Of a stretch of 64,000 nt of DNA, positions 7,070-58,206 are shown piece by piece. The DNA lies in the sequence record OZ035742.1; one strand, given 5' to 3'. A program made the translations under genes and the position numbers. Numbering within the stretch: the first letter of the stretch is position 1; each line of letters begins with the position of its first letter. The notes beneath the pieces are model-generated. The model was not told the origin of the DNA and ran no database searches. It saw only the letters and a program-made list of their open reading frames with translations. Origin of the DNA: Felixounavirus AN17P8.

Positions 7070-7210
7070 TTGGTAGATTTTTAACGTGGCTACTACCATC
7101 CACCCATACCTCACCTAACAACACCTAACAACACAAAACTACACCCCACACCACCGCACCACACCAAACATCACTTAAAAACCTTCTTAGAAGACTCTTA
7201 AGTGATGCTG
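7070..7210. repeat. third copy of the C/A-rich intergenic element
   Basis: TGGTAG-atttttaacgtggc-CTACCA hairpin, CCACCCATACCTCACC, ACCTAACAAC x2, then CATCACTTAA...TTAAGTGATG inverted repeat shared with 5781-5815. Confidence 0.55.
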
Positions 7211-7272
7211 GTGAGTACCCGTTGGTTTATGCTGCTCAGTATACTCACCAAATTTTCTATGTCAACAACTTT

Positions 7273-8412
7273 TTATTCGTAGTCTCGAATAACTAACCCG
7301 ACAGGGAACTGTAAAGACCCCTTACGAGTCATCTTCTGGAACTGAACCGTTAAAGGCTTCCCGATAAACTCTTCAGGATGCTCAGCAAGATACTGTTTCT
7401 TCTCATGAGTAGTCTTCCATGAGACATCTACAAAGACGTTAGGGAGGGTCTCTACAACGAACTTGCCATGACCACGCTTATCAGTCTTTACACCAGTCAC
7501 TTTAAACTCTTCAGTGTGCATCTTCTTGTGTTTAATCAAGAAGTATGAACGGTGACAACACTCATAGAAGGAGTCTTCAGAGATTGAACGGTACATTGCA
7601 CCTTCAAACTTAGCTTCAACCCACTTATCATGAGCTTCATCAAACTCTTCCCAAGAATTTACACGACGAGATTTAACAGGAACAACTCTACAGCCGTCTC
7701 TAAAGTCATTCAATGGTGAAGTCTCAATAATATCTCTACGCTCAGGCCACGTCTTAGTACTGTCACAGATATCGTACCAGTAAAACTTGAGTAGGTGTCG
7801 GTCAGGATTGTCTTCATTTTTAATCATGGAGACAATATCTTCTAAGTCCTGCCCATGAGCATAAATCTCACCATCAAATTCATCAACATCTTTGTGGAGC
7901 CTTAACATTGCCATAATGTCAGGTATTAGCTCAGTAGGAATTTTATAAACAGTATTCTCACGAGAGTATGCTGTAAATACACTACCGATGCTCAAGTGTC
8001 TTGAAATTCTACAACGGACACCATCAAGTTTTGGTTGAGCATCAGCAGGGAACTTCAGGTACTTCGCATGACTAACCTTTGCAGCATCATGAGCAAGCTG
8101 TACACCTACCTTCTCAGTATTCTGTGCAGACTCTTTTGTGTAAGCATAACCTTTACGGTCAACTTGCTTTTTATACTTAGCAGCAACTTCAAAGAGAGCT
8201 TGCTGTTCAGCGTTACGCTCATTCTTTTTACCGATGTTTTTAGGTTCTGCTGTATACTCTTCAAACATCATCTTGCCATTTTCTTTACCATAGGTTGTAA
8301 TAACTTTGTCACCTACAGCAACGCATGACCAGACGTTGAAAGAGCCATCTTTATTTTGTTTGTATAGGATTGTCATTTTATTCCTCTGAGTGATACCAAG
8401 TGTTGCAAGCAT
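7273..8412 (-). CDS. ATP-dependent DNA ligase
   Basis: Adenylation motif I KLDGVRC; length and later motifs fit a ligase. Confidence 0.8.
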   Translation of the reverse strand: MLATLGITQRNKMTILYKQNKDGSFNVWSCVAVGDKVITTYGKENGKMMFEEYTAEPKNIGKKNERNAEQQALFEVAAKYKKQVDRKGYAYTKESAQNTEKVGVQLAHDAAKVSHAKYLKFPADAQPKLDGVRCRISRHLSIGSVFTAYSRENTVYKIPTELIPDIMAMLRLHKDVDEFDGEIYAHGQDLEDIVSMIKNEDNPDRHLLKFYWYDICDSTKTWPERRDIIETSPLNDFRDGCRVVPVKSRRVNSWEEFDEAHDKWVEAKFEGAMYRSISEDSFYECCHRSYFLIKHKKMHTEEFKVTGVKTDKRGHGKFVVETLPNVFVDVSWKTTHEKKQYLAEHPEEFIGKPLTVQFQKMTRKGSLQFPVGLVIRDYE

Positions 8413-8569
8413 TACATGCGTAAAGCTCTAAGTCATTTTTATCCGGTTTATGAAAACAGTTTGCTCCGCAGTGGCAACGAAATGGCTTTCCACCAACTGT
8501 CAGGACGAAGGACTGAATCTTTCCATCAGGAGTTCGTACAGCATTTTTATGCTTATCTTCTTTGTTCAT
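8378..8569 (-). CDS. small zinc-binding protein
   Basis: Cys cluster CHCGANC...CNAC; overlaps ligase start by 35 nt. Confidence 0.35.
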   Translation of the reverse strand: MNKEDKHKNAVRTPDGKIQSFVLTVGGKPFRCHCGANCFHKPDKNDLELYACNACNTWYHSEE

Positions 8570-31161: not shown

Positions 31162-31432
31162 AGAGAAGTGGGAGATTTTACCATTAGTCAGTGAAGGCGG
31201 TAATGGTTGTGAAATGTACATGATACGTGGTCATGTTCCAGAACCAATTGCACTTGAGATGGTAAACAACTTTACAGATGGCTCTTACAAAGACTTAGGG
31301 GAGCCAACTATAAAGCAGCAATGGGTAAAGCCTGTACCAGACAGCACAGGTAACTGTAGTGTACTTTATCACGTTGTAGACCCTGTAAAATGCAAATCTG
31401 CAATGGCAGTAACAAATGTAACTTTTGATTGA
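31154..31432 (+). CDS. hypothetical protein
   Basis: 92 aa, coupled to neighbours. Confidence 0.35.
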   Translation: MAKEKWEILPLVSEGGNGCEMYMIRGHVPEPIALEMVNNFTDGSYKDLGEPTIKQQWVKPVPDSTGNCSVLYHVVDPVKCKSAMAVTNVTFD

Positions 31433-31443
31433 GAGAGAAAACT

Positions 31444-32325
31444 ATGAAAACATCTATCCGTGTTACAGTTCATTCACCAACTAAAGGGACTCATGAAGAA
31501 GAGTTTAACATCGTCCAATTTCCTTCTGGTGAGATTGGTGGACATTTTTCACCAGAGTTTGTTGACTTTACTGCTTATGCTGCATCATCCATCAACAACG
31601 TGATTATGATTGTAAAGGGTTATGACAAAGACACATTATTTGCTGTGGCACTTGCTAAAGAGGCAATTGATGATTTAGTACCTCATAAGTTTGCTATGAA
31701 GACTGCTATCTTTTACTATTTGCCAAATGCACGTTACGACCGTCACATGTTTAAAGGTGATGCAGCAGCTTTGAAAGTGTTTGCACAACAGGTTAATGCA
31801 ATGGGTTTTGATGCAGTCTGTGCAGTTGACCCTCACAGTTGCGTTCCAGATAACCTGTTTAACTGCTTCCAGAGTATTCCTCAAAAGGAGATTGCAGTTC
31901 ACTATGCAAATGACCCTCTGATTGATTACTTAGTAGCCCCAGATGCAGGTGCAGCTAAGAAGATTGCAGAGACTGCTAAAGAGGTGGATAAACCATATAT
32001 CACAATGTCTAAAGTGCGTAACCTTAAGACTGGTGAGATTACGGGTATGCGAATCCTTGATGATGTTGATTTGACAGATAAAACCGTCATGATTCTGGAT
32101 GATATCTGTGATGGTGGTCGAACCTTCGTAGAAGCAGCAAAACATCTTCGTGAAGCAGGTGCAAAACGTGTGGAACTTTATGTAACACATGGTATCTTCT
32201 CTAAAGATGTTGAAAACCTTCTTGACAATGGTATTGACCATATCTACACTACAAACTCTTTAGGGGAAGCTAAAGACCGTGGATTAGCACATTATGCCCA
32301 AGTTACTGTAGCAAACCTTGATTAG
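31444..32325 (+). CDS. ribose-phosphate pyrophosphokinase (Prs)-like enzyme; candidate ADPR-PP synthetase (Adps-like)
   Basis: Prs-family motifs VDPHS, LVAPDAGAAKKIAE, PRPP-binding loop ILDDICDGGRTFVEAAKHLREAGAKRV; start at ATG 31444 with RBS gagagag. Confidence 0.75.
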   Translation: MKTSIRVTVHSPTKGTHEEEFNIVQFPSGEIGGHFSPEFVDFTAYAASSINNVIMIVKGYDKDTLFAVALAKEAIDDLVPHKFAMKTAIFYYLPNARYDRHMFKGDAAALKVFAQQVNAMGFDAVCAVDPHSCVPDNLFNCFQSIPQKEIAVHYANDPLIDYLVAPDAGAAKKIAETAKEVDKPYITMSKVRNLKTGEITGMRILDDVDLTDKTVMILDDICDGGRTFVEAAKHLREAGAKRVELYVTHGIFSKDVENLLDNGIDHIYTTNSLGEAKDRGLAHYAQVTVANLD

Positions 32326-32333
32326 GTAATAGT

Positions 32334-32825
32334 GTGAATAAGGGTTATTTTGAAAAATACCTAATATATGAACCAGATACAGGTTTATTAATTTGGAGAG
32401 TAACCCTTTGCAGTACCGCTATTGCTGGTAATGTGGCTGGCACAAGGTCTAAGAAGGGTTATATCCAAGTCCAGATAAATAAGAAGAGGTACTATGCACA
32501 TAATATTGCATGGATTATGTCTGGAGGTGAGATACCAAGTGGATATGAGGTAGACCACATAGACCTTGATAAAGCTAATAATAAGTTGGAGAATTTAAGA
32601 CTTAGCACAAAGTCACAAAATCAGAGAAATAGGGGTATACACAAGAATAATAAAACTGGTGTGAAGGGTGTAAGTTTTTGTAAACAAACAGGTCTTTACA
32701 AAGCAAGAGTCATGCTTTACTATAAAGAATACTTTTGTGGAAGATTTAAAACGGTAGAAGAAGCAAAAGAAGCTGTAATTAAAAAGCGAATAGAACTTCA
32801 TGGTGAGTTTGCAAGACATAACTAA
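32334..32825 (+). CDS. HNH homing endonuclease with AP2-like domain
   Basis: GTG start; HIDLDKANNKLENLRL (HNH) plus GVKGVSFCKQTGLYKARV (AP2-like); sits between the two NAD+ salvage genes. Confidence 0.7.
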   Translation: MNKGYFEKYLIYEPDTGLLIWRVTLCSTAIAGNVAGTRSKKGYIQVQINKKRYYAHNIAWIMSGGEIPSGYEVDHIDLDKANNKLENLRLSTKSQNQRNRGIHKNNKTGVKGVSFCKQTGLYKARVMLYYKEYFCGRFKTVEEAKEAVIKKRIELHGEFARHN

Positions 32826-32839
32826 GAGAGAGATAAAAT

Positions 32840-34621
32840 ATGAGTAAGTCACTTTACGCAGTACCAGCAGGTCTTAATGCAGATGCTTACAAGGCATCAC
32901 ATATATATCAGTATCCAGATGCTACGCAATATCTTATGTTGAACCTAACACCACGTAGCGACAAATGGTTTAACAGTCCTTTAGCAATTGATGGTGTAGT
33001 GGCTTTTGGTATTCAACGTTTTGTTAAAGATTACTTGATAGACCACTGGAACGCCACTTTCTTTGAACGTGATAAAAAAGAAGCAATTGACGAAATCTTA
33101 GAAGTTATGAATGGTGTTCTGGGTAAAGATGCTATCGGTCGAGAGCATTGGGAAGCACTTCACGACTTAGGCTATCTACCAGTTGAAGTGTACGCTGTAG
33201 AAGAAGGTACAGTTGTTCCTATGCGTGTCCCAATGATTGTCTTCCAGAACACTGTTTCAGGTTTCCATTGGGTAGCAGGTTATCTGGAAGACGCTTTCTC
33301 TGCTGAGATTTGGAAGGCTTGCACCATTGCAACTATTGCATTGCACTACAAACGTATCTGTAAGAAGTGGGCTGACCTCACTTGCGACAACGACTTGCAT
33401 TTACCTTATCAGTGCCATGACTTTGCTATGCGTGGTATGTCCGGCTTTACTGATGACGCATTCAACGCTGTAGGACACTTAACCAGCTTTAAAGGGACTG
33501 ATAGCTTCCCTGCTGTATACACGGCTAAACGTATCTATGGGCAGACCTATCCAATCTCTGATATTGGAAGCTCTGTACCAGCCACTGAACACTCTGTAAT
33601 GTGTGCAAACATTGCTTGGGAAGGTGGTAACGAGTTGGTTGAAGAAGAAAGACGATTTAAAGGTGAGTTGCAAACCTTCCGTCGTTTCTTAACAGAAACT
33701 TACCCAACTGGTATTGCAAGTATTGTTTCAGATACTTATAACTTCTGGAGAACTGTGTCAGAAATCTTACCAGCACTTCGTAAAGAAATTATGGAACGTG
33801 ACGGTAAGCTGGTAATTCGCCCTGACTCTGGAGACCCTGTACACATTGTCACAGGTTATAAAGCAATCCACTTAGAGTGTGCTAAGAAGGCTTATTATGA
33901 GCACCTAAGCAAGCTGGAAGCTAGTGACACAATGTTGAATGCTGTTCTGAACATGAAGCTTGAAAACATCAACTATGGTATTGCTGGATGGCTACTGTCA
34001 GAAGGCTACGAAATGGTTGTTGACAGAGAAGACTTTGAAGTTGCTGATACAGTGATGTTGAAAAATGCTTATATGGTCGGTTCTGCAAACGTTGTAACAC
34101 GTCCTGTAGCTGAAATTGATGGAGCTATTAAGACACTGTACAACATCTTTGGGGGAACTATTAACTCTAAAGGGTTTAAGGTACTGGATGAACATATCGG
34201 CCTTATCTATGGTGACTCTATCACGCTGGAACGTGCAAACGAAATCCTGAAGCGTCTGTATGAAATGGGTTTTGCAAGCTCTAACGTAGTGTTTGGTGTA
34301 GGCTCTTACACTTACCAGTACATGACTCGTGACACCTTTGCATTTGCTGTCAAAGCAACTCTTGCAAGCATTGGTGGTAAAGAGATTATGCTTGCAAAAG
34401 ACCCTAAAACAGATAGTGGTGTTAAGAAGTCTGCCTTTGGTGGTGTAGCACCTATGTGGGACGGTGATAAGCTGAAAGCTGTAGATGGATATGGATTCCA
34501 GAGTTTTGCAGATGTACTTGACCACCCAGCCTGTGCTTTACGTTTAGTCTTTAGTGACTCTGAGCAGTTCGGTTACACGACTCTTGGTGATATTCGAAAT
34601 AATATTGACAAGCAGCTTTAA
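32840..34621 (+). CDS. nicotinamide phosphoribosyltransferase (NAMPT)-like enzyme; candidate nicotinamide ADPR transferase
   Basis: 593-aa NAMPT-family protein: N-terminal YKASHIYQYP, VFGVGSYTYQYMTRDT region; terminator follows. Confidence 0.8.
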   Translation: MSKSLYAVPAGLNADAYKASHIYQYPDATQYLMLNLTPRSDKWFNSPLAIDGVVAFGIQRFVKDYLIDHWNATFFERDKKEAIDEILEVMNGVLGKDAIGREHWEALHDLGYLPVEVYAVEEGTVVPMRVPMIVFQNTVSGFHWVAGYLEDAFSAEIWKACTIATIALHYKRICKKWADLTCDNDLHLPYQCHDFAMRGMSGFTDDAFNAVGHLTSFKGTDSFPAVYTAKRIYGQTYPISDIGSSVPATEHSVMCANIAWEGGNELVEEERRFKGELQTFRRFLTETYPTGIASIVSDTYNFWRTVSEILPALRKEIMERDGKLVIRPDSGDPVHIVTGYKAIHLECAKKAYYEHLSKLEASDTMLNAVLNMKLENINYGIAGWLLSEGYEMVVDREDFEVADTVMLKNAYMVGSANVVTRPVAEIDGAIKTLYNIFGGTINSKGFKVLDEHIGLIYGDSITLERANEILKRLYEMGFASSNVVFGVGSYTYQYMTRDTFAFAVKATLASIGGKEIMLAKDPKTDSGVKKSAFGGVAPMWDGDKLKAVDGYGFQSFADVLDHPACALRLVFSDSEQFGYTTLGDIRNNIDKQL

Positions 34622-42004: not shown

Positions 42005-42206
42005 AAAGACACGAAAACTTATCAGGTCAGCAGTGTTCATTGGACGAAATGAGGTCATCCCATTTACAGCAAATGATGTGATAGCTTACAGGAAGAACTT
42101 AGTATTCACTGACTGCTTACGTGGCTTCATCTCTGAACCATTGGAAGACTTTAAAAGTCGTTGTGGTAAAGGTATCATCATTCAAGAGGCAATTATTCAT
42201 GGCTGA
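41979..42206 (+). CDS. hypothetical protein
   Basis: 75 aa, RBS gaagg. Confidence 0.3.
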   Translation: MKVILARDKKTRKLIRSAVFIGRNEVIPFTANDVIAYRKNLVFTDCLRGFISEPLEDFKSRCGKGIIIQEAIIHG

Positions 42207-42399
42207 CTTCTGTAAAGACTGTTCTATCGAAATGTTCGGACGTGATACAGGTGACTTAAAAGGTCTTATCACTGAAGAGGACTTTAAATATGGCTATGCA
42301 ATGCCAGTAATCTGTGAAGGTTGTGGGTGCATCTGGGTAGACCACGAAGGGCAGCGTGTAAAACCTTCAGAAGATAAAGAATCTTGGGAGAGATGTTAA
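42199..42399 (+). CDS. small zinc-ribbon protein
   Basis: Start trimmed to ATG 42199 with RBS agagg; CKDC...CEGCGC. Confidence 0.3.
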   Translation: MADFCKDCSIEMFGRDTGDLKGLITEEDFKYGYAMPVICEGCGCIWVDHEGQRVKPSEDKESWERC

Positions 42400-43185
42400 A
42401 TGGGTATTGTAAAAATCATCAATGGCGATATCTTTGCCGCATTTGATAAAGGTAAGTTTGACATTATTGGTCACGGTTGCAACTGTATGAATTTAATGGG
42501 TGCAGGTATCGCTGACAAGATTTCTAAACTTTACCCAAAAGCATATGAGACAGATACAGAAGTCTATCTATATGCAGGTGGCATAGGCCACAAACCCTGT
42601 GAAAATTTACTGGGTAATTTCTCTGTAGCACGTTTAAAACAAGGTCGTATAGCTAACCTTTACACTCAGCTTAAGACTGGTAAAGATGCCCGATACAGTG
42701 CTTTAGAGTCATCTTTGAAACAGCTTAACAGATACTGTGAAGTTAACCAGTTGAAGAAGGTTGGTCTACCTATGATTGGTGCAGGTATCGGTGGACTTGA
42801 CCCCCAAGCTGTCACAGTCATCATCAATCAGGTGATGAAGAGTGTAGACGTTTATCTATATGTCTATGAAGGAGAGATGTACCACAAGTTACGCTCAGGT
42901 TGGAAGAACTACTGTGAACCAGAATACTTTGCAGGTGTAGCAGTGTTCACGGATAACGCAGTTACCCTCTTCAGACGAAGAAAAGGTAAGATACATCAAA
43001 GTAACCCTCCGGTTGAAAGGATGTCTCTAAGTAACGCTCTAGTTACCCACCTGTCGAAGAGCAATCACAGAATAGCTGTGACATTTGGTAGTGATGCAGA
43101 TGCTTACATCTATGCAAGAACTGATGAGGATATCGAGGCAATTTTCTCATCACCGGAAGTTACCTTCTTAGACGCAAAGAACTAA
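42400..43185 (+). CDS. macro domain protein (TARG1/DarG-like ADP-ribose hydrolase fold)
   Basis: NGDIF...DIIGHGCNCMNLMGAGIA matches TARG1-type HCISEDCRMGAGIA; second glycine loop GLPMIGAGIGGL; C-terminal ~110-aa extension. Confidence 0.65.
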   Translation: MGIVKIINGDIFAAFDKGKFDIIGHGCNCMNLMGAGIADKISKLYPKAYETDTEVYLYAGGIGHKPCENLLGNFSVARLKQGRIANLYTQLKTGKDARYSALESSLKQLNRYCEVNQLKKVGLPMIGAGIGGLDPQAVTVIINQVMKSVDVYLYVYEGEMYHKLRSGWKNYCEPEYFAGVAVFTDNAVTLFRRRKGKIHQSNPPVERMSLSNALVTHLSKSNHRIAVTFGSDADAYIYARTDEDIEAIFSSPEVTFLDAKN

Positions 43186-43253
43186 GAAACTCTGTAGAAT
43201 ATTCACAATAGACTAAGCCTTTCTTATCTGGTAAATTTTTCAGGTAAGGGGGC

Positions 43254-43438
43254 TTTTTCATTTCAGGATTGTGCAGGTAGAGTTCTGTATAGAAATCTGT
43301 AGAGAAAATTTTGAACTCCAAAGGGAAAATTCATTTTCAAGCTGTGCAGGTAATCTCCAAAGAGCTTTTTCATTTTCAAAACGTGCAGACCCCGCTCAGG
43401 TCGGGCAAGAAAAATCATTTTAGAATCGTGCAGGTAGG
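43254..43438. repeat. four direct repeats TCATTTYnnnnnnGTGCAGGTA
   Basis: Copies at ~43258, 43330, 43368, 43413 with irregular 39-73 bp spacing; between macro-domain gene and cassette. Confidence 0.6.
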
Positions 43439-43621
43439 TGGATGCAGGTGGGGATGTCGCCATTTCTCACAAGGCTACCACATCTGGAAATAAAAGTCAA
43501 CATAAAACTTTGTAGCGGATTGAAAAATAATTCTTGATTGTAGTTCTGTTTTGTGGTAGTCGCGCGCACCCGTTTCATTACAATTTTTGCAAAAAAAAAA
43601 AAAATATTTTTAAAATTCCTA

Positions 43622-43650
43622 TTGACTCTTTGAGTATGGTTATCTAATAT
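43622..43650 (+). promoter_or_regulatory. strong sigma70-like promoter, cassette gene 1
   Basis: TTGACT-N17-TAATAT preceded by a 14-A tract (43591-43604); conserved leader hairpin 43661-43681 follows. Confidence 0.55.
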
Positions 43651-43713
43651 TTGCATCAACGGGGAGGGAATGACCTTCCCCACTAAGTAAAGTCCTAAAC
43701 TGGAGATTCTAAA

Positions 43714-52862: not shown

Positions 52863-53327
52863 TTACTTTGGATATACACTGTCAAGATAAATGTCAGCTT
52901 CCATTCTACGTCTATTTTTCAAGCCGTTTGAAGTTACCTTCTTACCTTTGACTGTAATCTTGTTCCACCACTGCATAGCTTCTGCACAACCTACCTTATT
53001 ACCAGCATTGTGGCGCTTGATAAATGTAGAGTCCTGCATAGCTGTGATACCGATGTTATATGTTTCACTTACAAGTGCATCAAACTCGTTCTGAGAAGTT
53101 GGAACCTTGATGGATTTGTTCACTGCTGCAACGAACTTTTCAACATCTGCGAGAAGATACTGTTCAGCTTGTTCAGCGGTAATCTTCATACCCATCTTAA
53201 CAGGCTTACCAGCAATACGGATAGTCCCATACCCAATTGTGGGGATTCCAGCAGAATCTTCGTAAGCCTCTAACTTAAGACCTTCAAAGAACTTAATAGC
53301 TTCTAAACCTTTCTGTGAGAGTTGCAT
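52863..53327 (-). CDS. endolysin, T4-type lysozyme (GH24-like)
   Basis: LEAIKFFEGLKLEAYEDSAGIPTIGYGT aligns with T4 lysozyme catalytic region (Glu, Asp, Thr triad). Confidence 0.85.
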   Translation of the reverse strand: MQLSQKGLEAIKFFEGLKLEAYEDSAGIPTIGYGTIRIAGKPVKMGMKITAEQAEQYLLADVEKFVAAVNKSIKVPTSQNEFDALVSETYNIGITAMQDSTFIKRHNAGNKVGCAEAMQWWNKITVKGKKVTSNGLKNRRRMEADIYLDSVYPK

Positions 53328-54712
53328 TATGCCTCCCCTGCTGGGTTAACTGTAACTGTTGCCGCATTAGATGTTACAGAGCCACCTGCGCCAGTCACTA
53401 CACAAGTGTAGCTTCCCGCATCAGCAGTGGTTGCACCTTCTTTGGTGTAAGTTGCAGTAGTTGCATCGAGGATGTCTTCCTCACCTTTCTTCCACTGGTA
53501 ACCTGTCGCACCTGTTGCCACAACATTCAGCGTTAATGTTTCACCTTCACTGATTTCTTGATTGGTTGGCTGTTGAGTGATTACCGGAAGTGCATTCACA
53601 GTAACTGTTGCTGCATTAGATGTGACTGTTGTGCCACCTGCACCAGTAACTACACAGGTGTATGAACCAGCATCGGCAGGAGCTACACTAGCTTTCGTGT
53701 AAGTCGCACCAGTTGCACTAGGGATGTTCACATTGTCCTTTTTCCATTGGTAACCTTCTGCGCCTGTAGCCTCAACACTCAGTGTCAAAGAGTTCCCCTC
53801 ATTAACTACCTGATTGGTTGGCTGCTTGGTAATAACTGGTAAAGCATTTACCGTGACAGTTGCAGGGCTAGAAGTAACAGAACCACCTGCACCTGTTACG
53901 ACGCAAGTGTATGAACCTGCATCTGCTGGCAGAGCGCCAGACTTGCTATAGATAGCCTCTGTAGCCGAAGGAATGTCAGAGCCATCTTTCTTCCACTGGT
54001 AACCCGTTGCACCCGTTGCAGTCACTTCCAAGCTGATGTTTCCACCCTCATTGATGGTCTGGCTAGAAGGTTGCTGTGTAATCACAGGTAGTGCATTAAC
54101 AGTAACTGTTGCCGCATCTGAGGTAACGCTTGTCCCAGCCTCTCCAGATACAACACAAGTGTATGAACCAGCATCAGAAGGGGCTACAGACTGTTTTGTG
54201 TAGGTTGCAGATGTGGCGCTAGTGATATCCTCACCATCTTTTTTCCATTGATATCCAGTGGCATTAGTTGCAATAACGCTTAGGTTAAGTGTACCACCTT
54301 CATTTACTGTTTGATTGGTTGGTTGCTGAGTGATTGATGGTGGCTTGATAGCGTCCTTCAACTTAGCATTCAACATTGAGAATGGTTTAACTCTTGCCAG
54401 CCACTCACAATAAACTGTATCAACGTCTTTACCATTGATAATTGCATATTGTAAGTCCATGAAGAAGTCAGAAGTTCTCATTTGAGCACCAACGCTGTAA
54501 AGCAACTCATCACTAAATGGGACTTTGTAGTCCGGTTTGTAGTCAAACTTCTCAACTTCTGCAATATCAGCTTCAGGCCAATACGAACTATAGGTGAGTG
54601 GTAAAATAGCCTCTTGATATGTTCTAAAATCATATCTCTTACCAGCCTTTACATTTGCAATGAAGCCCTTCACAAACTCTTTGAAGTCTGGGTAAGTCTT
54701 TGCTTTAATCAT
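53327..54712 (-). CDS. protein with N-terminal domain plus four tandem Ig-like repeats
   Basis: Four ~83-aa repeats each with QWKKDG and DAGSYTCVVTGAGG (Ig-like Gly-x-Tyr-x-Cys); N-terminal ~125 aa paralogous to adjacent gene. Confidence 0.6.
   Translation of the reverse strand: MIKAKTYPDFKEFVKGFIANVKAGKRYDFRTYQEAILPLTYSSYWPEADIAEVEKFDYKPDYKVPFSDELLYSVGAQMRTSDFFMDLQYAIINGKDVDTVYCEWLARVKPFSMLNAKLKDAIKPPSITQQPTNQTVNEGGTLNLSVIATNATGYQWKKDGEDITSATSATYTKQSVAPSDAGSYTCVVSGEAGTSVTSDAATVTVNALPVITQQPSSQTINEGGNISLEVTATGATGYQWKKDGSDIPSATEAIYSKSGALPADAGSYTCVVTGAGGSVTSSPATVTVNALPVITKQPTNQVVNEGNSLTLSVEATGAEGYQWKKDNVNIPSATGATYTKASVAPADAGSYTCVVTGAGGTTVTSNAATVTVNALPVITQQPTNQEISEGETLTLNVVATGATGYQWKKGEEDILDATTATYTKEGATTADAGSYTCVVTGAGGSVTSNAATVTVNPAGEA
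53346..54340. repeat. four tandem ~249-bp coding repeats (Ig-like domains)
   Basis: Units start near 53346, 53594, 53843, 54094 with shared GTAACTGTTGC...CACCTGCACC strings. Confidence 0.75.
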
Positions 54713-56790: not shown

Positions 56791-58206
56791 ATGAGCGAGT
56801 TATTTAAACATGCGCACCTTCATGCAGGTCGAACTGAAAATGGTGCTGTAAACCATACTTCATCAATGTCTGCTCTGGTAGACTTTTACAAAGCCGCTGG
56901 CTCAAGCCGTAGCAATGTAGAAATCTTACCAGACCTGTTCTACAAAGCTTTGCATGAGGATGTTGATGTTGCAGTTCGTATTTTGCTTCATATGCGAGAT
57001 GTACGAGAAGGTATGGGTGAGCGTAAAGCCTTCAGAACTGTTTTGCTTCAAGCAATTGAAGACAAAGTTTTAGAGTCTACGCAGGTTCTTCGCATTATGG
57101 ATAAGATTGCAGAACTTGGTCGTTTTGATGACTTCAAAATCTTCGTAGGTACTCGTTTCGAGACAGATGCCTTCAAACATTTAGAAGCAGCATTACTAGA
57201 CCCTGCAACAGCAGGTTTGGCGGCTAAGTGGTTACCACGAGTCAAACCACGTCATAAGCAGTTTGTAAAACGTTTCTGCAAGTTTGCCAACTTGAGTGAG
57301 AAAGAGTACCGCACACTGTTGTCTGCACTATCTGATACAGTTGAGCAAAAAATCTCTGCTAATGAGTTTGGTAAGATTGACTACAGCAAGATTCCTTCAC
57401 TTGCTGCTGCACGTTACCAAAAACTGTTTAACCGTAAAGATGGAGAACGCTACAAAGCTTACATCGAGTCCTTATCAAAGGGTGAGACTAAGATTAATGC
57501 TGGTGCTGTTTACCCATACGATGTGATTAAATCTGTTAAGTATGGTAATGCAGATGTTGCCAATGAGCAGTGGAAAGCACTACCAAACTGGATGGCAGAA
57601 GGTGAAAACATCTTGTGTATGACTGATGTTTCAAGCTCAATGTCTTGGGTGAATCTTGGCTCAATCACCGCCCTTGATATTGGTGTATCGCTTGCCTTGT
57701 ATGTAGCAGAACGCAATACAGGCTGCTTTAAGAATGAGTTAATGGTTTATTCAACAAACCCTCACTTCATTGAACTGAGTGGTGATTTACGAAACCGTCA
57801 TCGTCAGGTGATGCGACACGTTGAATATGGTTCAACTAACTTACAAGCAGCTTTCGACCGCATTCTTGAGACAGGTAAAAGAAACAACTTGACTCAGAAA
57901 GATATGCCAAGTAAGCTTATCATATTCTCTGATATGGAGTTCAATCAGGTTGATGGAGCTAACGGTCGTACAAACTTTGAAGCAATTCAGAGCAAGTACA
58001 AAAAAGCTGGATATGAGATGCCACAACTGGTATTCTGGTACTTAGCAAACCGTAATGGTACTTGCGAAGTGTCCGTTAAGGATAACGGTGTAGCAATGGT
58101 ATCTGGTTTCTCTCCAGCCACTTTAAAAGCTCTGCTTGGTGGTGAGAAGTTTGACCCAATCAGCGTAATGCTCAAAGCAGTAATGATTGACCGTTATATC
58201 TGGTAA
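56791..58206 (+). CDS. vWA-domain protein (MIDAS motif)
   Basis: C-terminal half has DxSxS (TDVSSSM), conserved Thr and acidic residues spaced as in vWA folds; ~220-aa alpha-rich N-terminal domain. Confidence 0.5.
   Translation: MSELFKHAHLHAGRTENGAVNHTSSMSALVDFYKAAGSSRSNVEILPDLFYKALHEDVDVAVRILLHMRDVREGMGERKAFRTVLLQAIEDKVLESTQVLRIMDKIAELGRFDDFKIFVGTRFETDAFKHLEAALLDPATAGLAAKWLPRVKPRHKQFVKRFCKFANLSEKEYRTLLSALSDTVEQKISANEFGKIDYSKIPSLAAARYQKLFNRKDGERYKAYIESLSKGETKINAGAVYPYDVIKSVKYGNADVANEQWKALPNWMAEGENILCMTDVSSSMSWVNLGSITALDIGVSLALYVAERNTGCFKNELMVYSTNPHFIELSGDLRNRHRQVMRHVEYGSTNLQAAFDRILETGKRNNLTQKDMPSKLIIFSDMEFNQVDGANGRTNFEAIQSKYKKAGYEMPQLVFWYLANRNGTCEVSVKDNGVAMVSGFSPATLKALLGGEKFDPISVMLKAVMIDRYIW

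Follow-up and report, generated by a model that had tools for sequence, protein, structure and literature searches.

What does the gene at 42400..43185 do for the phage that carries it? The window, by which we mean the whole 64,000-nucleotide stretch of Felixounavirus AN17P8 DNA (OZ035742.1) that was analyzed, is a Felix O1-type phage genome. An earlier interpretation made from its letters alone (the sequence-only reading) had assigned the gene product, hereafter the window protein, a TARG1/DarG-type macro domain and a role in counter-defense; overall, that interpretation is partly supported. Our results indicate that the gene is genuine and conserved and that its product, which carries a macro domain of the phage Tk.4 type, is almost certainly a catalytically competent hydrolase. 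Judging from its homologs, the most likely function would be the removal of thymidine-linked ADP-ribose (ADPr) placed on phage DNA by DarT2, an assignment that we regard as having an even chance of being correct. The gene and its two domains are as follows.

42400..43185, plus strand: coding sequence from the open reading frame (ORF) list, 261 residues, macro domain followed by a C-terminal domain
42400..42870, plus strand: macro domain, residues 1-157 (Pfam, AlphaFold2, Foldseek, invariant alignment columns and identity with Tk.4)
42871..43182, plus strand: C-terminal domain, residues 158-261 (104 residues), consisting of a helix, six β-strands and a helix (AlphaFold2 model)

The ORF spans 786 bp from ATG to stop, and the strings quoted in the sequence-only reading (GDIF, HGCNCMNLMGAGIA and GLPMIGAGIGGL) are all present in its 261-residue translation. 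The 786-bp stretch is matched at 90-97% nucleotide identity by 202 phage records, nearly all from Felixounavirus-like phages of Escherichia, Salmonella, and Shigella. The Felix O1 ortholog is ORF13 (Felix01p025, 96% nucleotide identity to positions 7130-7915), which is annotated with the product "phosphatase" and a record note referring to the T4 "17.5 kDa protein in the tk-vs region." Among Felixounavirus loci, the macro domain has a ratio of nonsynonymous to synonymous substitution rates (dN/dS) of 0-0.10, compared with 0.07-0.28 in the C-terminal domain. Nonsynonymous change in the macro domain is nearly zero, even though dS reaches 0.16-0.38, and the gene is under strong purifying selection. 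Taken together, the domain matches, the predicted fold, the conservation in 202 records and the purifying selection place this ORF far beyond chance.

Pfam Macro (PF01661) covers residues 25-141 with E = 1e-7 and 32.3 bits (gathering score, 22). An AlphaFold2 model computed with a 30-sequence alignment (predicted local distance difference test 90.5, predicted template modeling score 0.89) features a macro fold over approximately residues 1-157 and a separate β-rich domain over approximately residues 158-255. With a score above the gathering threshold and the corresponding fold, the macro domain is a member of the PF01661 superfamily. Foldseek identifies 240 macro-domain matches in the PDB at E ≤ 0.001. 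The closest is human TARG1 (4j5q, E = 5e-10, target template modeling (TM) score 0.81), and the top three are TARG1, Thermus aquaticus DarG (5m3e), and Mycobacterium tuberculosis DarG, with target TM scores of 0.75-0.85; alphavirus and coronavirus macrodomains and yeast Poa1p rank lower. The family profile matches TARG1 (E = 4e-17), SCO6735 (5e3b, E = 2.6e-15), and BT1257 (E = 3e-14), and its top 14 distinct PDB sequences comprise entries for TARG1, M. tuberculosis DarG, SCO6735, Poa1p, 2afc, BT1257, and T. aquaticus DarG. These rankings place the domain in the ALC1-like (TARG1-like) class, and its neighbors are not of the MacroD, PARG, or macroH2A types. The fold class proposed by the sequence-only reading for the N-terminal 150 or so residues is therefore correct, and its estimate of about 110 residues for the additional domain is close to the 104 found here. 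With the NCBIfam DarG equivalog model, the match is confined to the macro half, and its 48 bits fall short of the cutoff of 250.

The active site tells a different story from the fold. Residues H25, G26, N28, C29, M33, G36, A38, P46, G72, N86, L87, T89, Q90, P124, G127, and G129 are invariant in 30 homologs. The macro-domain motifs are HGCNC, MGAGIA, NLYTQ, and PMIGAGIGG, with NLYTQ serving as the family signature. Profile alignment superimposes Q90 onto TARG1 K84 and G131 onto TARG1 D125, in agreement with single-sequence alignment; the Lys84/Asp125 catalytic dyad of TARG1 is not present. When PhiKZ gp104 is aligned with each of the two DarG structures, the DarG motifs read VN(22)xVGVMGKG and FPTK(80). 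BLASTP against gp104 aligns N28 with N23 and Q90 with K78, the residues named as active-site residues of chimallivirus AdfM (PMC13309987). The DarG and PhiKZ sequences FPTK, FPTK, and MFPTK line up with NLYTQ, so that DarG Lys80 has no lysine counterpart, while DarG Asn22 does correspond to PhiKZ N23 and to N28, which is invariant in the family. The active-site Asn is therefore kept, but an invariant Gln stands where TARG1 and DarG have their hallmark lysine. Structure prediction and residue mapping, which the sequence-only reading had proposed as checks, thus uphold its fold and not its description of the motifs as a TARG1/DarG catalytic signature.

A Gln at this position is known from Streptomyces coelicolor SCO6735, in which Gln85 occupies the place of TARG1 K84 and DarG K80. 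This enzyme cleaves DarT-made thymidine-ADPr on single-stranded DNA (ssDNA) with a processivity above that of DarG or TARG1; activity is lost in the Q85A mutant and almost lost in N27S, and the proposed mechanism is water-mediated (PMC9411070). The SCO6735 pair Asn27/Gln85 and Gly128 correspond to N28, Q90, and G129, all of them invariant, where the equivalence is transitive through TARG1 and DarG and agrees with the coordinates of the 5e3b match, assuming a 20-residue tag offset. By this alignment the active site appears to be of the lysine-independent Asn+Gln type seen in SCO6735, and with that enzyme as precedent, the Lys-to-Gln replacement need not indicate a dead enzyme. The loop after Q90 (QLKTGKD) contains K92 and K95 but is of a short seven-residue type, unlike the longer Lys89 loop of SCO6735. 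The His of the HGCNC motif is a Gln (QGCNC) in the family members at loci L028 and L029 (Erwinia-phage-like, 260 residues) and at L037. This His, common to Poa1p (H23) and TARG1 (H32), is therefore not strictly required in the family.

Which phage proteins share this site? The PHROG 335 profile covers residues 1-260 (E = 7e-113), and BLASTP aligns residues 3-157 with residues 2-152 of T4 Tk.4 (34% identity, E = 3e-24, 82 bits). The two proteins have identical HGCNC, NLYTQ, and IGAGIG motifs, and the loop that follows the Gln aligns without insertions or deletions. With homology over the full length of Tk.4 and the signature in place, the window protein is a member of the phage Tk.4 (PHROG 335) family. 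The macro family is found by tblastn in 2,856 of 50,697 phage records. A motif table was compiled from ORFs of 79 IMG/VR loci with 6-kb flanks, dereplicated to 45 family members; all except one of these (44/45) have the active-site Gln. The majority, including the window protein and Tk.4, combine a seven-residue loop after the Gln with G-x-G-I, and a minority have a loop of 10-15 residues, mostly with G-x-G-L. One member (P0026, 339 residues) has a Gln-type macro domain fused to cREC_REC (PF20274, "cyclic-phosphate processing receiver"), an architecture which hints that some of these proteins function in the metabolism of ADP-ribose cyclic- or 1''-phosphate.

In T4, tk.4 is the single gene conditionally required on DarTG2 hosts, as confirmed with a clean knockout, and it has been named adfM (preprint 10.1101/2025.11.20.689424). 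The same name has been given to chimallivirus macrodomains such as PhiKZ gp104 (2026 Cell Reports, PMC13309987), which are DarG-like with a catalytic Lys and have been shown to remove ADPr from DNA (PMC13309987). AdfM thus designates two macrodomain lineages, represented by PhiKZ gp104 with Lys (L003:12518-13003) and T4 Tk.4 with Gln (L002:6923-7390). Gp104 is 23% identical to the window protein (E = 2e-4) and falls outside the Tk.4 family in a neighbor-joining tree; the Lys-to-Gln difference in the active site marks the two lineages as mechanistically different.

By analogy with these systems, the window protein would be an early-expressed counter-defense hydrolase of the Tk.4 family. The glycine-rich loops MGAGIA and PMIGAGIGG would bind the ADP-ribose moiety, N28 would hold Q90, Q90 would position the distal ribose, and water would cleave the bond at C1'', as proposed for SCO6735. 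The predicted substrate is thymidine-linked ADP-ribose put on replicating phage ssDNA by DarT2-type toxins, and its removal would restore phage replication, as suggested for T4 Tk.4/AdfM. The NARP1 enzymes that the phage itself encodes might subsequently convert the freed ADP-ribose back to NAD+. The counter-defense idea of the sequence-only reading thus finds backing in homologs, both in Tk.4/AdfM against DarTG2 and in Adpp of Vibrio phage Gary against the aRES defense; what it overlooked is the phosphatase function of the latter.

Several observations weigh against the anti-DarT2 assignment. The evidence for Tk.4 is genetic and comes from a preprint, in which ADPr removal from DNA is itself a deduction (10.1101/2025.11.20.689424), and a literature search for papers linking Felix-like phages with DarTG found none. 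The Tk.4 family also contains a proven ADP-ribose 1''-phosphate (ADPR-1''-P) phosphatase (10.64898/2026.01.28.702374). SCO6735 Lys34, which positions DNA, corresponds to Ala35 (of MGAG) in the window protein. In a neighbor-joining tree with 200 bootstraps, the window protein groups with Tk.4 in 46% of replicates and with Adpp in 10%, and Tk.4 groups with Adpp in 44%. The charge of the macro domain does not discriminate between substrates, and the C-terminal domain is left unexplained. Two potential arbiters were accordingly dropped: phylogeny, for which the 46%/44%/10% bootstraps do not separate a Tk.4-like from an Adpp-like origin, and macro-domain charge or pI, which is acidic in two proteins that act on DNA, Tk.4 and PhiKZ AdfM, and neutral to basic in Adpp. 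HIDEN-SEQ was applied to T4, Bas37, and Bas54 only (10.1101/2025.11.20.689424).

Could the protein instead be an ADPR-1''-P phosphatase? Part of the evidence is a gene pair elsewhere in the window.

31429..34621, plus strand: NARP1 gene pair, outside the macro gene and given as context (Pfam)
31429..32325, plus strand: Adps-like, PRPP-synthetase-like ORF (Pfam Pribosyltran/Pribosyl_synth)
32840..34621, plus strand: Namat-like, NAMPT-like ORF (Pfam NAPRTase/NAMPT_N)

The PRPP-synthetase-like and NAMPT-like products are the NARP1 enzymes Adps and Namat. The first demonstration of NARP1 used genes 79-80 of a Felixounavirus, Bas63. What the sequence-only reading called an NAD+ salvage pair is thus the NARP1 pathway rather than classical salvage. 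The two ORFs are separated by about 514 bp, a region under which related records annotate an HNH homing endonuclease. The same phage groups account for the 256 records in which the DNA of the pair is conserved. From the end of the pair it is 7.8 kb downstream to the macro gene, and rIIA, rIIB, and some 10 other genes intervene; the macro gene and NARP1 are co-inherited in the lineage and do not form one operon. The earlier picture of NAD functions concentrated within a few kilobases is overstated, as the pair lies 7.8-11 kb away in a different gene block.

With NARP1 encoded by the same phage, the macro domain might serve as an Adpp-type phosphatase, converting the ADPR-1''-P that results from NAD+ phosphorolysis by RES-domain (aRES) proteins to ADP-ribose, from which Adps and Namat would regenerate NAD+. 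This would amount to a split version of the NARP1-AP pathway, and we consider it the main rival, possible but less likely than not. Gary Adpp (KNV71_gp137) belongs to the same family as the window protein (27% identity, E = 5e-14), with the H-x-C-N-C, N-x-Y-x-Q, and P-x-I-G-x-G motifs in common, and the Hades ortholog is 30% identical to the window protein (E = 1e-16). Gary Adpp is a Poa1p-like macro protein that dephosphorylates ADPR-1''-P in biochemical assays and is needed for NARP1 to overcome aRES (10.64898/2026.01.28.702374). Poa1p, itself an ADPR-1''-P phosphatase, is the best PDB match of the N-terminal half of the window protein (E = 2e-9). The long-standing annotation is "phosphatase/A1pp," and the ADPR-1''-P phosphatase function is the origin of that existing label. 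The organism breakdown of the NARP1 DNA (256 records) is nearly that of the C-terminal domain (242 records), but co-occurrence at the level of a lineage is inseparable from shared ancestry.

Genome arrangement and sequence detail speak against the phosphatase assignment. The Gary and Hades genes, which are 79% identical to each other and 34% identical to Tk.4, occupy the same operon position between Adps and Namat, whereas the macro gene of the window stands outside the NARP1 operon, beyond rIIA and rIIB. Its product also scores closer to Tk.4 than to Adpp (82 versus 52-59 bits). Adpp-type proteins and two of the three NARP1-neighboring homologs have a loop of 13-14 residues and G-x-G-L-A-G, in contrast to the seven residues and G-A-G-I-G of the window protein and Tk.4. 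The Adpp-type features, which we derived from a few sequences and which are not an established definition, are NVYGQ, a 14-residue loop, MGRGIA, and GCGLAGG; the window protein has NLYTQ, the seven-residue loop, MGAGIA, and GAGIGG in their place. Three loci have NARP1 genes at a distance of up to 6 kb. Two of them (L067/L069 and L080) belong, like Adpp, to the long-loop group, but the third (L060) is short-loop and lies 3.5 kb from NARP1, and the correlation between loop and NARP1 rests on few cases. ADPR-1''-P phosphatase activity is common among macro domains in vitro (10.64898/2026.01.28.702374). The anti-DarT2 and Adpp-type functions are not mutually exclusive, because both cleave the C1'' substituent of the distal ribose. 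That ADP-ribose released by the macro domain feeds NARP1 is plausible.

TARG1-class enzymes have a broad range of C1'' substrates, and it is conceivable, if rather improbable, that the window protein reverses some other linkage, such as uracil-linked ADPr on RNA, ADP-ribosylated phage or host proteins, or the O-acetyl-ADP-ribose of sirtuin-type defenses. TARG1, DarG, and SCO6735 also remove uracil-linked ADPr from single-stranded RNA (PMC13036486), and some records annotate the ortholog as an O-acetyl-ADP-ribose deacetylase. No homolog in the phage family has been connected with a substrate of this sort, the neighboring genes examined include no ADP-ribosyltransferase, and the two family members tested experimentally, Tk.4 and Gary Adpp, point elsewhere.

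A role as a non-catalytic sponge for ADP-ribose-derived signals such as Thoeris gcADPR or His-ADPR, or as a degrader of them, with the C-terminal domain oligomerizing, would surprise us greatly. Signal degradation had been raised by the sequence-only reading, and the C-terminal domain could serve assembly. Against this, the invariant residues are exactly the catalytic Asn/Gln pair of SCO6735, and no family member is known to have an activity of this type. Known anti-Thoeris sponges have unrelated folds. Macro domains do bind His-ADPR in the ThsA of type II Thoeris (2026 preprint). A Thoeris link through that preprint was rejected, as the macrodomain in question belongs to the host ThsA effector and not to a phage protein.

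Conserved residues of the C-terminal domain are P174, G179, and Y236, and the domains of Felix/Moogle-type proteins and of more distant 250-residue homologs are homologous to one another (hhalign 96.5%, E = 8e-10). It occurs in 242 records, only as a fusion to the Tk.4 macro family, and in Ounavirinae-type phages. A word-index protein search returns no relatives, and an exhaustive HMMER search of 1.84e9 representatives finds the fusion family alone, along with truncated fragments (P0032, P0036) and repeat or β-propeller noise (P0033-34, P0037-39). Pfam at E ≤ 10 gives scattered single-member matches only, sequence-profile searches of the PDB give nothing below E = 0.15, and the sole match in BFVD is the same fusion in phage SUSP2. 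A nucleic-acid-binding or DNA-mimicking role was set aside, since homologs range in net charge from -5 to +4, which indicates neither. We regard the domain as an accessory module that is peculiar to phages of the Ounavirinae type and is kept by selection; as to its purpose, targeting and the binding of a partner are only guesses.

Two bolder proposals can be made, and we judge it unlikely that either is correct. In the first, the C-terminal domain supplies a second, non-enzymatic mode. It might bind and neutralize a defense protein such as DarT2, by analogy with the sequence-unrelated C-terminal domain of DarG, or serve to anchor the hydrolase at the replisome of the phage. In the second, the macro domain is a dual-substrate C1'' hydrolase that acts on both thymidine-ADPr DNA and ADPR-1''-P and feeds NARP1; if true, one gene would link the anti-DarTG and anti-NAD-depletion layers.

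Two short features flank the gene.

42386..42392, plus strand: Shine-Dalgarno-like GGGAGAG, 7 nucleotides 5' of the macro-gene ATG (sequence context)
43219..43262, plus strand: terminator-like hairpin (43219..43252) followed by a T-run, beginning 34 nucleotides past the stop codon (consensus scan)

The ATG directly adjoins the TAA stop codon of an upstream 66-residue ORF (42199..42399, plus strand), an arrangement suggesting that the two genes may be translationally coupled. This small ORF is the counterpart of Felix O1 ORF12 (PHROG 2210, no assigned function). It is Cys-rich, and its C-x-x-C and C-x-x-C-x-C spacing suggests a small zinc-binding protein. The hairpin, a pattern match only and with a stem poor in G+C (4 of 13 pairs are GC), probably closes a rightward early transcription unit. 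An ORF-free gap (43186..43713) follows the macro gene and contains about four direct copies of the pattern TCATTT(T)xxx...GTGCAG(GTA) at 43255..43437 (plus strand), spaced 39-84 bp apart and starting immediately 3' of the hairpin. A stricter form of the pattern is confined to this gap within the window, with two matches against 0.01 expected. An Rfam scan of the gap gives no match, and the equivalent Felix O1 gap (7916-8422) is likewise without an annotated gene.

Ten neighboring genes were scanned, and all belong to PHROGs of unknown function except one Rz-like spanin; the idea that the neighbors form a counter-defense island was rejected on this result. Farther away, the window holds an array of 26 tRNA genes (58373..63585, plus strand) that covers most amino acids and is interspersed with a few small ORFs. 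A 471-residue DUF2828/DUF7788 protein (56791..58206, plus strand) lies just upstream of the array, and a 460-residue protein (53327..54712, minus strand) contains at least four immunoglobulin-like domains (Ig_3, E = 4e-44).

Phage macrodomains have been tied to counter-defense only recently (2025-2026), and one sequence family now has two demonstrated roles, against DarTG2 in T4 and, in Vibrio phages, as the ADPR-1''-P phosphatase that serves NARP1. Phages of the Felix O1 type, which are workhorses of therapy and diagnostics, have both NARP1 and a Tk.4-like macro gene, each at its own locus. This makes them a natural system for asking which of the two activities, or both, such a gene provides. 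The finding is not surprising in kind, as the macro/A1pp phosphatase annotation dates from the publication of the Felix O1 genome. The new element, in a kind of gene that has just become known, is the fusion to an orphan C-terminal domain, a small and well-defined unknown that is maintained by selection and has no detectable relatives.

Set beside the known systems, the window protein resembles each in part. SCO6735 (PDB 5E3B) shares the Asn+Gln active site in place of the TARG1/DarG lysine, but it is bacterial, distantly related, and without a C-terminal domain of this kind. DarG and chimallivirus AdfM share the fold class, the conserved Asn, and the proposed task of taking DarT2-made ADPr off DNA, but both rely on a catalytic Lys (K80 and K78, respectively) and fall outside the Tk.4 family in the tree, and the DarT-binding C-terminal domain of DarG is absent here. 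Human TARG1 (OARD1) is the best overall match by structure and by profile, with K84 and D125 where the window protein has Q90 and G131. Yeast Poa1p shares His-x-Cys-Asn-Cys...Gly-Gly-Ile-Ala, but it has a Ser in place of the Gln, and the residue corresponding to Poa1p S30 is L32 in the window protein. TARG1 and Poa1p are both eukaryotic single-domain proteins, unlike the phage fusion. Gary Adpp comes from a phage that also encodes NARP1, but it is a macro-only protein of 158 residues with a loop that is seven residues longer. T4 Tk.4 is likewise macro-only (155 residues) and is not robustly the sister of the window protein, which has an additional 104-residue domain; both are encoded by orphan genes that lie in early regions and have no toxin partner.

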